Of a stretch of DNA of 64,000 nt, positions 38,963 through 61,948 are shown piece by piece. Source of the stretch: Escherichia phage phiWec187; sequence record LC739536.1. The stretch is one strand, 5' to 3'. Made by a program: the position numbers and the translations under genes. How positions within the stretch are numbered: the first letter of the stretch is position 1; each line of letters starts with the position of its first letter. The notes below the pieces were generated by a model. That model had not been told where the DNA came from. It did not search any database and was given only the letters and a program-made list of their open reading frames with translations.

Positions 38963-39433
38963 TTAGTCAGATTCCCAAATGTTGTCTTTCTTAATCCACA
39001 TTCGTTGATTATCTGAACCTCTATAACGTTTCGTTGTTGGTTGATTCATATCATACTTACCATCTATCACTATGTCAACCAGTTTTTTAATTTTTTCTGG
39101 AATTTCCTCAAAAAGATATCCTGTATATAAGACAATATCTTTTTTGTTTCCAAAACAATCTCTTACCTTCTCAAGAACATACTCTACAGTGTCAATGTTC
39201 TCTTTGTCAAGAGGTTCACCACCTAAAACTGTTAATCCTTTAATGAAAGGTCGAGATAAATCTTTCAAGATAAGATCTAATGTTTCAGTAGTGAACTCTT
39301 GTCCGTGGTTATACGACCAGGCTTTCTGGTTAAAGCAGCCACGGCAACCGTGGCTACAACCGCTCACCCACAAAGAGCATCTTACACCGTCACCGTTGAG
39401 CATGTCAACAGGTTCATATCCGGCGTAATTCAA
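38963..39433 (-). CDS. nrdG: anaerobic ribonucleotide reductase activating protein (radical SAM)
   Basis: CSLWVSGCSHGCRGC Cys cluster near the N-terminus; 156 aa; immediately downstream of nrdD. Confidence 0.8.
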   Translation of the reverse strand: MNYAGYEPVDMLNGDGVRCSLWVSGCSHGCRGCFNQKAWSYNHGQEFTTETLDLILKDLSRPFIKGLTVLGGEPLDKENIDTVEYVLEKVRDCFGNKKDIVLYTGYLFEEIPEKIKKLVDIVIDGKYDMNQPTTKRYRGSDNQRMWIKKDNIWESD

Positions 39434-40371
39434 AAATGTTTCTCCCTTTCTAGTACCTCTTGCATTTTACCTTTATTATAGGGGCGAGAGTTAGGGGCAG
39501 AAAGGTATCCTGACACTCTTCTGATCACAGATATGGATTCTTCTTCATGATTGCCACAACTTGGACACTCGAAGCCTTTAGCCGTTGCTTTAAATTCACC
39601 ATGAAAACCACATTTGAAACACTGATCTACAGGTTGGTTCACACCAAAATAAGGAATTTTGTTGTAGGCATAATCTACAAGAGTTTCCAGTGCTTGCAAG
39701 TTATTTTTAAGGTTTGGTGTTTCTACATAACCTATGTTCCCACCATTACTGATTTGTGCAAAACCTTCCTCATAATCCCACTTTTGGAACGGGGTAGTGT
39801 GCATCCATACAGGTTGATGGAAAGAGTTTGTCAAGTAGTCACGATCAATAGAACCAGGATAGCGATCATTTAATGCTTTGGCAAATTTATAGCACAAGGA
39901 TTCTGCTGGTGTTCCATACAAACTAAAAGCTAAACCAGAACGTTCTTTAAATGTGCCACAGATATCCTTCATATATTGAAGGATGTTTTTACCCATTGCT
40001 TTTGTATTGGTGTTACCTGGGTATAAAATCTCCATAGCTTCTGCTAAACCTACATAACCGATACTAATAGAGGCATAACCACCTTCGAATAGTTTACCAA
40101 TCTCTTCATTAGCTTCTAGTCGAGCTAAAGCCCCTTCCATAAACAATGTAGGGTTTTGAGATGCTTTGGTATGTCTAATACGGTTAACACGTAGCATATG
40201 TGCCTTATACGCCATCTCCATATGTTGTTCCAACAGTTCAGTAAATAAGATGCCCTTTTCACGGGACTCTGCTGCAATGATAGGTAAGTTTAAAGAAACC
40301 ACGCCTAAGTTGAAACGACCATCATATTTTTCACCTTGCTCTGTTGCGTAGTATGACAAGAAACTTCTACA
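39430..40371 (-). CDS. nrdD: anaerobic ribonucleoside-triphosphate reductase, exon 2
   Basis: Begins CRSFL; contains C-terminal zinc ribbon (CFKCGFHGEF...CPSCGN) and glycyl-radical motif RRVSGYL. Confidence 0.8.
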   Translation of the reverse strand, partial: CRSFLSYYATEQGEKYDGRFNLGVVSLNLPIIAAESREKGILFTELLEQHMEMAYKAHMLRVNRIRHTKASQNPTLFMEGALARLEANEEIGKLFEGGYASISIGYVGLAEAMEILYPGNTNTKAMGKNILQYMKDICGTFKERSGLAFSLYGTPAESLCYKFAKALNDRYPGSIDRDYLTNSFHQPVWMHTTPFQKWDYEEGFAQISNGGNIGYVETPNLKNNLQALETLVDYAYNKIPYFGVNQPVDQCFKCGFHGEFKATAKGFECPSCGNHEEESISVIRRVSGYLSAPNSRPYNKGKMQEVLEREKHF

Positions 40372-41140
40372 CATTATGTTCAAAGTGGCTCGCAAGGCCA
40401 CTCCCGCACCATTACGTGCTGCTGCATGTCACCATGCAGATCAGACTATATCTTCATGCTTAAAGCATGTCTACCATTTGGGGTGTCATAGGCTTACACC
40501 CTACGCTGCTACATTCATCACAGCTAGTCGTTAGGCATTTCGTAACAGAACTCATAATCATAATTATTTGGTGCTCCTCGCTTTAAGATTGCAGATATTC
40601 TTTTTCTGTCCAACCCTAAAGCGTCAGCACAACATCTCAGACTTTTAAAGTAAAAAACTTCACCGGTAGCCTTATGAGTAGCTTTTACACTGTGACACCT
40701 TGTGTAGAAAGCATAACAGTTATTATCGTAACCCTCTTGCGTGTTGTCTGGACAAGATCCCCACTCAAGATTGTATACACTATTGTCTTTCCTATTGTCA
40801 CCTTTATGCTTCACATAAGGTAAATTGTCTGGATTGGGTAAAAACGCTTCAGCTACAAGTCTGTGCACCCGAAAGCAAACAGTTTTCTTGTTTTTACGTA
40901 TTCTGACAAGTTGGTATCCTGTGTTTATTTCTTCCCACGAGCGAAGGATTCTTTCATCCTTATACCTGGTACAATAAACATTTCCAAGCTCGTCAATTTC
41001 ATACCCTTCAAAATCACGAATTTGTTTTCTCATATCAGTACCCCCTTCTTCTGTGTTGGGAGTTCTGTTACGTTTAGCACGGGATTGTCTCGTTGAGAGT
41101 TCCCCCGTTTAGGCAGATTTTACATGAGCAGTTATAGTTT
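40372..41140 (-). mobile_element. group I intron (IA2-like) interrupting nrdD
   Basis: 769 nt; 5' exon ends CAUGGGU, which can pair with intron GCUCAUG (P1, U.G at the splice site); intron core AAACGGGGGAACUCUCAACGAGACAAUCCCGUGCUAAA closely resembles the T4 td intron core; intron ends in G; splicing rejoins ...TSMG|CRSFL... Confidence 0.8.
40524..41033 (-). CDS. intron-encoded HNH homing endonuclease
   Basis: 169-aa ORF inside the intron; VHRLVAEAF...HKGDNRKDNSVYNLEW is an HNH signature. Confidence 0.75.
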   Translation of the reverse strand: MRKQIRDFEGYEIDELGNVYCTRYKDERILRSWEEINTGYQLVRIRKNKKTVCFRVHRLVAEAFLPNPDNLPYVKHKGDNRKDNSVYNLEWGSCPDNTQEGYDNNCYAFYTRCHSVKATHKATGEVFYFKSLRCCADALGLDRKRISAILKRGAPNNYDYEFCYEMPND

Positions 41141-41998
41141 ACCCATGCTTGTGACGCGACCATCTGAAGATCCTGTAACTTCTTTGTTTAAAGGTACAGA
41201 GATAAAATCAGGATAAATGCGTTCAGCACAACACTCCATTGCCAGTTGCTTCAAATCATAGTTTGGATCGCCAGCTTTCATGTTAACACCATCTTCCAAG
41301 AAGAAGATAACTTTAGGAAACACAGGAGTTACCCTATCTTTTCCTAATCCTTGTTTGTGCACCATTAGGTAGTTTTTAGTGATCATTCTACCAAAAGCAG
41401 AGGTATCCAAGCCTAAACTAATTGTTATAAAAGGTGACTGACCATTTACACTCATTAGGGTGTTCACCTGGTAGATTAAAGTTTGCATTGCATCATAAAC
41501 CTGTTTATCTACCATACGCATAGCAATATCATAATCGCCAACATCGGCGTATATTTTATTAAAACTTGCTTTAACGTATTGACTAAGCCCAGTATCAATA
41601 TGTGCACAAGTTTGTCCACCATATTGGCTAGAAGCTACTGCTTGAATAATTTGAGTTAGGACAGTAGTTGCTACACCGATAGATTTTGGTTTTTCAATAT
41701 GTGCATTACCAATACGGAAACCGTTCTCAAGCATATCTTGGTAATTTACCAGGCAACAATTAGTTAGAGGTGAGAGTAAATAATCTAAATCGTGAATGTG
41801 ACCATACCCACTTTTATGCCATTCTGCCAGATCTTCCGGTAAAATATGGGTCATTGCCATGTGCTTGCTTAGGATACCTGCTAGTAAGTCTCGGTGAGTA
41901 TTAACAATCATTGCAGGTTTGTTTGCATTTTCACGAGTAAATTCTTCGGATGTTTGTTCGAGGAATCCGATTACATCCTCATATAGTTTTTGGGTCAT
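41141..41998 (-). CDS. nrdD: anaerobic ribonucleoside-triphosphate reductase, exon 1
   Basis: 286 codons ending ...GRVTSMG at the 5' splice site; the listed ORF reads 2 codons into the intron before a stop. Confidence 0.8.
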
Positions 41999-42009: not shown

Positions 42010-42040
42010 GGAAAATAAAAGCCAGCTTAATGCTGGCTTT
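42010..42040 (-). terminator. rho-independent terminator
   Basis: aaagccagc-ttaa-tgctggcttt hairpin followed by U-run on the minus strand. Confidence 0.55.
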
Positions 42041-61653: not shown

Positions 61654-61681
61654 TTGACAAGATAACTAAAATCAGTAAAAT
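61654..61681 (+). promoter_or_regulatory. early promoter
   Basis: TTGACA, 16-nt spacer, TAAAAT; hairpin gggcggca-atag-tgccgccc at 61692-61712. Confidence 0.6.
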
Positions 61682-61732
61682 GTAATGCATAGGGCGGCAA
61701 TAGTGCCGCCCCTAGTGAGAGAGATTATCAAC

Positions 61733-61948
61733 ATGGCTAATATCCGCACCTTGTTAAAAAATGCAAAGCAAGTTTTATTTTCAGATGACGAATATTTTAA
61801 TAAAGATATTACAGGCGTGAAAAATTTAAAAGACGTGAAGGATGTTATCGGTATCCGTGGATCTTTACGTAAAGGTGACATATACGGTAACAAGGTGCAG
61901 TATAAACTGTCAAAAGATTATGATTTTACTTTGACAATTATTTCATAA
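61733..61948 (+). CDS. early protein, hypothetical
   Basis: Start at the internal ATG after the 5' hairpin; the listed longer ORF would begin inside the promoter/hairpin. Confidence 0.5.
   Translation: MANIRTLLKNAKQVLFSDDEYFNKDITGVKNLKDVKDVIGIRGSLRKGDIYGNKVQYKLSKDYDFTLTIIS

Follow-up and report, generated by a model that had tools for sequence, protein, structure and literature searches.

Textbooks have described group I introns that encode homing endonucleases in phage ribonucleotide reductase genes since the 1980s. In the established picture, ribozymes and endonuclease genes evolve independently of one another, and insertion beside the codons of catalytic residues is common for both introns and inteins. 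Introns of the Michel-Westhof subgroup IA contain the extra helices P7.1/P7.2, located between P7 and the 3' strand of P3, as well as P9.1/P9.2; the td, nrdD, and nrdB introns of T-even phages are of this type. I-HmuI, which is encoded by the DNA polymerase intron of Bacillus phage SPO1, nicks one strand. The endonucleases of the T-even introns are of more than one family. The td and nrdD introns encode the GIY-YIG enzymes I-TevI and I-TevII, and I-TevIII of the nrdB intron is an HNH enzyme (PMC2988022). The ribosome-binding sites of the T4 intron endonuclease genes are hidden in hairpins (PMC2988022).

Closer to the locus described here, parts of a related arrangement have already been recorded by the depositors of phage genomes. 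In the GenBank record of phi92 (FR775895), the join of the two nrdD parts is annotated as Phi92_gp192A, a 'spliced variant', in the ORF-less form. In several rV5-like records the ORF between two nrdD pieces is labelled 'HNH homing endonuclease'. The full 769-nt form present in the records of arall, VEcB, and SD2 is not annotated as an intron, and in those of arall, VEcB, and nepoznato the second nrdD fragment begins at a GTG that lies inside helix P9.2. Our literature search, which did not reach the phi92 genome paper, found no paper describing the nrdD intron of phi92-, phAPEC8-, or rV5-like phages. The terminase introns are the only ones mentioned in the rV5 paper.

The window analyzed here is a 64,000-nt stretch of DNA of Escherichia phage phiWec187 (LC739536.1). 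Megablast against deposited phage genomes identifies its source as a phi92-like coliphage (Stephanstirmvirinae, genus Justusliebigvirus), and arall and VEcB are 98.9% identical to it across the nrdD region. The nrdD gene of this phage is interrupted between the codons for Gly286 and Cys287 by an element that we take with high confidence to be a mobile group I intron of the self-splicing type, belonging to the T-even IA family. The element is real, well formed, and recently mobile. It is of an ordinary kind, which public phage genomes already contain and in part annotate.

Insertion site and ribozyme fold

The nrdD gene, the intron, and the HNH gene are all on the minus strand, and nrdG is directly downstream of nrdD (Table 1). 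As listed, the two ORFs of nrdD extend somewhat beyond the exons. The first (41132..41998) matches positions 1-263 of the Pfam NRDD profile, and the second (39430-40401) matches positions 263-562 and the glycyl-radical domain. The frame of exon 1 ends three codons into the intron at an in-frame UAA (41134-41132), and this termination inside the insert rules out an intein.

Table 1. Features of the interrupted nrdD locus, in positions of the window
Feature	Position	Strand	Description
nrdD exon 1	41141..41998	-	codons 1-286; ends ...ACA AGC ATG GGT; Pfam NRDD profile 1-263, E 1e-72
Group I (IA-type) intron	40372..41140	-	769 nt; starts AAACUAUAAC, ends AACAUAAUG; terminal G at 40372
P1 helix	41123..41147	-	exon CAUGGGU 41147-41141, 11-nt loop, internal guide GCUCAUG 41129-41123
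5' ribozyme core	41038..41122	-	P3 5' strand 41117-41112; P4 41108-41103 with 41084-41079; P5 41098-41095 with 41091-41088; P6 5' strand 41078-41077; P6a 5' strand 41072-41065; P6b hairpin 41063-41058 with 41045-41040
HNH homing endonuclease gene	40524..41033	-	169 aa, in P6a loop, I-HmuI-like; PDB 1U3E, PHROG 59
Dispensable segment	40549..41037	-	contains the ~490 nt missing from the 279-nt phi92-type allele, from alignments
3' ribozyme core	40372..40548	-	P6a 3' strand 40548-40541; P6 3' strand; P7 40529-40525 with 40448-40444; P7.1, P7.2; P3 3' strand 40475-40470; P8; P9 with GUGA tetraloop 40439-40422; P9.1, P9.2; terminal G 40372
nrdD exon 2	39430..40371	-	codons 287-599 and stop; begins TGT AGA AGT (Cys-Arg-Ser); Pfam NRDD 263-562 and Gly_radical
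Exon-2 co-conversion tract	40337..40371	-	about 35 nt, moves with the intron; first six bases TGTAGA

The boundaries of the insert were read from an alignment of the window with three relatives: muut, which lacks the insert, phi92, which has a short form, and arall, which has the full one. What the intron-less muut allele lacks is exactly the 769 nt from 40372 to 41140. At this site muut reads ...AGCATGGGT/TGCCGT..., and the window reads ...AGCATGGGT/aaac...aatg/TGTAGA..., where the ends of the intron are AAACTATAAC...AACATAATG. The empty target of the muut type is ACAAGCATGGGT/TGCCGTAGTTTC. Removal of the intron is predicted to leave the ligated junction ...AGCAUGGGU/UGUAGAAGU..., which in RNA would be ...AUGGGU/UGUAGA.... 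The two exons joined form an ORF of 1800 nt, equal in length to the intron-less CDS of muut, and precise excision restores the host frame. The rejoined NrdD has 599 aa (~68 kDa) and reads ..TSMG/CRSFL... across the junction. It matches NCBIfam NF006732 (760 bits, cut-off 657) and TIGR02487 (523 bits), each in a single continuous stretch, and it aligns end to end with T4 NrdD (PDB 1H78). The original prediction, made from the window alone, had placed two nrdD exons 769 nt apart, had fixed the splice sites to the nucleotide, and had read TSMG/CRSFL at the restored junction. The muut alignment and the unbroken NrdD matches agree with it on every one of these points, and no different junction is required by the protein alignment that had been proposed as a check.

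In the alignment to 1H78, the intron falls between the equivalents of Gly289 and Cys290 of T4 NrdD. Cys290 is the active-site cysteine on the finger loop. Since the first residue encoded by exon 2 corresponds to this cysteine, the intron directly precedes the codon of the catalytic residue.

The insert folds as a group I ribozyme. Thirteen helices were placed by hand (P1, P3, P4, P5, P6, P6a, P7, P7.1, P7.2, P8, P9, P9.1, and P9.2), and all 72 of their base pairs form in the window. The pairing of exon and guide in P1, which had been proposed at the outset, comprises 7/7 pairs and has the canonical U.G at the 5' splice site, formed by the last U of the exon with a G. JSE carries a compensatory change in the same helix (GAUGGGU/GCUCAUC). 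P6a is an 8-bp helix of CGUAACAG with CUGUUACG, and the terminal G that closes the 3' end of the intron (...AAUG, at 40372) is set by the intron-less allele. Covariation was assessed on an alignment of seven ORF-less cores, namely those of the window, nepoznato, HMD-6, JSE, Vibrio phage F97, the T4 nrdD intron, and the td intron of RB7. Pairing holds in 94.6% of the cells of this alignment, and two-sided changes are seen in 30 of the 72 pairs. Slid controls, in which the 3' partners were moved by 1-3 columns, had 34-45% of cells paired and 3-6 pairs with two-sided changes, and not one of 500 shuffles equalled the observed values of pairing and covariation. P7 is invariant across the alignment and is therefore uninformative for covariation. 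P7.1, P7.2, P9.1, and P9.2 all form and covary. The presence of these extra helices, together with sequence homology to the T4 nrdD and td introns, places the intron in subgroup IA, which is the T-even td/nrdD/nrdB type.

With the ORF in place, the window has no match to Rfam at the gathering threshold. A permissive search finds RF00028 on the 3' half alone (39.2 bits), the match to the model being interrupted by the 490-nt ORF segment in P6a. The ORF-less allele of phi92, whose 279 nt are identical to the corresponding core of the window, matches the full Intron_gpI model (RF00028) at 70.6 bits (cut-off 50, E 2.8e-17). The covariance-model search suggested in the original prediction is thus passed by the ORF-less allele and gives a partial match with the window alone. 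The assignment to group I is sustained by this match, by the 72 formed pairs, and by the covariation, and the core strings AAACGGGG...GACAAUCCCGUGCUAAA that had been cited for it are present in the window. No second intron came up when the entire window was scanned permissively with Rfam, the other hit being a sub-threshold hilD 3'UTR. A P10 pairing is speculative. The candidate would pair CUAUA (intron positions 4-8) with UGUAG over 5 bp, with a 3-nt spacer from P1; it is weak and is not conserved in JSE.

The HNH endonuclease gene

The intron contains an intact endonuclease gene, whose last codons (encoding ..EMPND, followed by the stop) overlap J6/7 and the 5' strand of P7. An HNH endonuclease ORF had been anticipated here, and the product indeed matches I-HmuI (PDB 1U3E) over its full length (query 3-166, chain 4-172, E 8e-9). 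The alignment runs from the N-terminal beta region through the HNH motif to the C-terminal helix-turn-helix. In the motif, VKHKGDNRKDNSVYNLEW..DN of the window aligns with VDHKDGNKDNNLSTNLRW..IN of I-HmuI, and the His and Asn residues are conserved. The two PHROG families that match, 59 (E 2e-34) and 959 (E 2e-27), are both described as 'HNH endonuclease'. Two Pfam models narrowly miss their curated cut-offs, HNH_3 with 22.0 against 24.8 bits and I-HmuI_NUMOD-like with 25.4 against 27 bits, and no NCBIfam model matches the endonuclease. The residue before the catalytic His is Lys in the window enzyme and Asp in I-HmuI. That Asp of I-HmuI is a metal ligand, and judged by this substitution the chemistry of the window enzyme may differ from that of I-HmuI.

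Orthologues of the enzyme are encoded in this intron, at the same point, in HMD-6 (91% aa identity), JSE (50%), and F97 (50%). All of them end in EMPND, and the H...N...N motif is conserved in the four lineages. Between the window and HMD-6 the dN/dS is about 0.04, a value that stands over a saturated dS, and from this ratio the endonuclease gene is under purifying selection.

The P6b hairpin contains the GGGGG Shine-Dalgarno sequence of the endonuclease gene and has a folding energy of -14.2 kcal/mol (z = -3.3). A hairpin that buries a purine-rich Shine-Dalgarno sequence directly upstream of the endonuclease gene is found in 4/4 lineages, with z about -3. The ribosome-binding sites of the T4 intron endonuclease genes are likewise hidden (PMC2988022). 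A search for a promoter belonging to the endonuclease gene itself, which covered the sigma-70 type, found such sites at chance level (9 against 7.6 expected).

Distribution and mobility

Matches to the window at this locus fall into three classes of megablast coverage. Coverage of 100% corresponds to the insert of the window, about 82% to an insert that is roughly 480-490 nt shorter, and 71% to no insert. Among 54 Justusliebigvirus-like records, 23 contain the intron and 31 are without it, counts that include RefSeq/GenBank duplicates and are approximate. Almost all Phapecoctavirus records are intron-less. Among Stephanstirmvirinae records, only about 10 have the full form with the endonuclease gene, and within Justusliebigvirus the ORF-less alleles are commoner than the ORF-containing ones. 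Besides the deletion of the phi92 type, there is a second deletion, of 479 nt, that gives an allele of 290 nt (AMO3598 type). Short repeats (GG/GGG, CTG) are present at the edges of the deletions, and the end-points are therefore ambiguous by a few nt. Both endonuclease-deleted alleles, of 279 nt and 290 nt, retain every ribozyme helix and a relic of the ribosome-binding-site hairpin. The endonuclease gene has been lost at least two times independently.

The intron has also crossed between genera. In nepoznato, a Phapecoctavirus, 765 of its 769 nt are identical to the window (99.5%), and the nrdD exons have 70-80% identity (25-46 of every 50 positions compared). The block of identity between the two phages extends from 6 nt before the 5' splice site to about 35 nt into exon 2. 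Within this exon-2 tract nepoznato has the Justusliebigvirus-type sequence TGTAGAAGTTTCTTGTCATACTATGCAACAGAGCAAGG, and intron-less Phapecoctavirus phages have TGTCGTTCCTTT...; in two of them, KKP 3954 and phAPEC8, the tract reads TGTCGTTCCTTTTTG...GCCACC. The occurrence of donor-type exon-2 sequence in nepoznato makes the co-conversion tract a signature of DNA-level homing from a Justusliebigvirus-like donor. This was a recent transfer of the intron between genera, and it was accompanied by exon co-conversion. Together with the patchy distribution of the intron, the tract is indirect evidence for site-specific cleavage of the intron-less allele. TGTAGA starts exon 2 in every intron-containing allele examined and in none of the 31 intron-less Justusliebigvirus records. 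The change in exon 2 from TGCCGT to TGTAGA is synonymous and intron-linked.

Three other readings of the locus are disfavoured by the covarying ribozyme, its retention after loss of the endonuclease, purifying selection, and the short co-conversion tract. The one that survives best, although we consider it improbable, is that the intron splices but has spread by ordinary homologous recombination during co-infection, or else by reverse splicing, the HNH protein being inactive or having another role, for example as a maturase. The Asp-to-Lys difference beside the catalytic His would suit such a protein, and the excess of ORF-less over ORF-containing alleles in the genus would suit spread that is independent of an endonuclease. 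The low dN/dS (about 0.04, again over saturated dS) and the H...N...N residues kept in four lineages argue against it. In addition, the transferred block reaches no more than 6 nt past the intron on its upstream side and about 35 nt on its downstream side. Repair of a break is expected to give such short, insertion-centred co-conversion; reverse splicing would transfer no exon sequence at all.

We give far less credence to a split of the gene without splicing, in which an endonuclease cassette divides nrdD and the two polypeptides assemble after translation. There is a precedent in the nrdA gene of Aeromonas phage Aeh1, which is divided by mobE and whose halves assemble post-translationally (PMC7344957, PMC3653736), and the records of arall, VEcB, and nepoznato do show two separate 'large subunit' CDSs and a hypothetical protein. 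However, a complete and covarying ribozyme fold lies on both sides of the ORF, and relatives without the endonuclease gene have kept the 279/290-nt ribozyme intact and undegraded. The 'CDS' of exon 2 would have to start at the GTG within the intron helix P9.2 (40401), and position 263 of the Pfam profile is common to both halves, so that no overlap or linker is required. Just as hard to believe is a decayed intron whose RNA no longer splices. In that case nrdD would be a pseudogene, and the element would persist only because the phage can do without anaerobic ribonucleotide reduction under laboratory conditions. Some endonuclease-bearing phage introns do fail to splice, for example one in Pectobacterium phage CB7 (PMC7344957), but here every core helix is fully paired, the core is identical across many independent isolates, neither exon is damaged and the two score as full-length NrdD, purifying selection on the endonuclease gene is strong, and another genus has recently been invaded.

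Proposed mechanism and comparison with known introns

For the mobile group I intron that we favour, catalysis of splicing, the activity and cleavage site of the endonuclease, and the control of its translation are assigned by homology, and the following cycle is proposed. The transcribed RNA would fold into P1-P9.2, with exon CAUGGGU paired to the guide GCUCAUG. Free guanosine would attack 3' of the U in the U.G pair (41141/41140), and the released exon 1 would then attack after the terminal G (40372) to yield a ligated mRNA for an intact 599-aa NrdD. With its Shine-Dalgarno sequence locked in P6b, the endonuclease would probably be translated from processed or late transcripts only. During a mixed infection the enzyme would nick or cut intron-less nrdD alleles close to the insertion site, and recombinational repair would then copy the intron along with about 35 bp of exon 2.

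The kind of element has long been known, and no concept is changed by the finding. It is of value mainly for annotation, as nrdD is split in two, with a hypothetical protein added and the second fragment begun within the intron, in most of the public records (arall, VEcB, nepoznato, and many rV5-like phages). The correct product is predicted to be a single 599-aa NrdD translated from spliced mRNA. The locus is also a natural snapshot of the homing cycle, with a recent jump from genus to genus, co-conversion of only a short tract, an endonuclease gene lost twice independently while the ribozyme was kept, and many empty sites. The insertion exactly before the catalytic cysteine codon adds to the clarity of the example. 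Between them, related coliphage isolates represent the endonuclease-bearing form, two independent deletions of the endonuclease, and the empty site, and would allow each stage of homing to be tested directly.

One close relative is the phi92 nrdD intron (FR775895), whose gene, site, and ribozyme are those of the window; over its 279 nt it is identical to the window intron minus the ORF segment. It differs by the absence of the 490-nt HNH segment, whereas the window, arall, VEcB, and SD2 have the full 769-nt form. Further relatives are found in rV5-like phages such as HMD-6, in the T4-like phage JSE, and in Vibrio phage F97. They share with the window the insertion site (..MG/CRS..), the ribozyme architecture, and an orthologous HNH protein. 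The identity of their ORF-less cores to that of the window is 89% for HMD-6, 77% for JSE, and 66% for F97. In F97 exon 2 is still UGCCGA and matches the guide UUGGCA next to P1, whereas the lineage of the window has UGUAGA.

The T4 nrdD (sunY) intron has the same host gene, the same 7-nt guide GCUCAUG, no P2, the P7.1 loop GAUGAAUGUA, homologous P9 and P9.2 helices, and a homologous 3' end. BLAST aligns it with the window core at 70.5% identity over positions 12-230, and the identity of the ORF-less cores is 63%. It is inserted at the codon for Tyr180 of T4 NrdD, which corresponds to codon 176 of the window and is about 110 codons upstream of the window site. Its GIY-YIG enzyme, I-TevII, is encoded downstream of P9, whereas the HNH gene of the window is in P6a. 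The window intron is not a member of the T4 nrdD intron/I-TevII element, as the insertion site and the enzyme family are both different. It follows from these two differences that the window carries a relative of the T4 nrdD ribozyme, placed at another site in nrdD and paired with another endonuclease, and such a second-site intron fits the established picture of independent evolution. The guide GCUCAUG is kept at both nrdD sites, opposite exon UAUGAGU in T4 and CAUGGGU in the window. A fuller history can be sketched, but it is doubtful: a sister of the T4 nrdD and td ribozymes may have moved to the second nrdD site by guide-directed reverse splicing and later gained a site-matched endonuclease, and TGCCGT may have changed to TGTAGA under selection either to pair in P10 or to make the site immune to the enzyme.

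The T4 td intron shares with the window the identical P4-P6 motif AAACGGGG..GACAAUCCCGUGCUAAA, an ORF in the P6 loop, the 3' end UGAACAUAAUG, and an endonuclease ribosome-binding site hidden in a hairpin (PMC2988022). It differs in its host gene (thymidylate synthase), in having P2 and a short P7.1, and in its GIY-YIG enzyme I-TevI. BLAST aligns td with the window core at positions 172-230 only, and the ORF-less core identity is 58%. The original description of the core as td-type is right for the P4-P6 motif, the 3' end, and the ORF in P6, but P2 is absent, the guide and the P7.1 loop are those of T4 nrdD, and the overall identity is lower with td (58%) than with T4 nrdD (63%). By these comparisons the T4 nrdD intron is, overall, at least as close to the window intron as td is. 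The accompanying contrast, an HNH enzyme rather than the GIY-YIG enzymes of the classic T4 introns, is valid for I-TevI and I-TevII but does not extend to the nrdB intron, whose I-TevIII is itself HNH (PMC2988022). I-HmuI, against which the window enzyme aligns in full, has low sequence identity to it and belongs to a different host intron and target gene.

Deletions of the endonuclease gene

The group I intron of nrdD occurs in public genomes in forms that lack its HNH endonuclease gene. Two distinct deletions of that gene from one intron were found relative to window positions 40549-41043, one in the 279-nt allele of phage phi92 and the other in the 290-nt allele of AMO3598, and the deletion edges in each allele bear short repeats (CTG; GAAGGG / TATGA). 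Because the two deletions differ, comparison of these sequences implies that the endonuclease gene has been lost independently at least twice, with the ribozyme retained.

Exon 2 in public records

In the public records of the closest relatives, the second nrdD fragment is given a GTG start at window 40401 (arall, which has the full intron; nepoznato, a Phapecoctavirus phage with a near-identical intron; phi92 gp192), and the join is not annotated for these entries. This position falls within the intron helix P9.2, and the fragment as annotated therefore carries 10 spurious codons.

Segments relating to nrdD exon 2
Feature	Window	Strand	Source
Second nrdD fragment as annotated in relatives	39430-40401	-	Public records
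Exon 2 bases +1 to +6	40366-40371	-	Allele comparison

Some GenBank MG0656xx records (hits H13-H16 and H57-H62) are named "Campylobacter phage", with Campylobacter jejuni given as host. Part of them share 98-99% identity with phi92-like phages of E. coli; a second group, whose intron is ~84% identical, resembles rV5-like coliphages. These host labels look doubtful.

In the gap between nrdD and the upstream gene, ~20 nt before the start codon of nrdD, there is a terminator-like hairpin at 42018-42040 (-); its 9-bp stem (AAAGCCAGC..GCTGGCTTT) precedes a T run. A sub-threshold Rfam match to hilD_3p_UTR at 61679-61835 (-), which scores 39.8 bits (E 9e-5) where the cut-off is 74, is probably due to chance or composition.

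Exon sequence and guide compared with other introns

All intron-containing alleles from four phage lineages open exon 2 with TGTAGA (Cys-Arg), in place of which intron-less alleles have TGCCGT or TGTCGT, encoding the same amino acids. P10 pairing, endonuclease immunity or plain co-conversion could account for TGTAGA. In Vibrio phage F97, exon 2 still begins TGCCGA and a matching guide, UUGGCA, adjoins P1. The T4 nrdD intron has a 7-nt guide, GCUCAUG, identical to that of the window intron (P1 at 41123-41147), but the exon targets differ (UAUGAGU in T4, CAUGGGU here) and the two insertion sites lie ~330 nt apart within nrdD.
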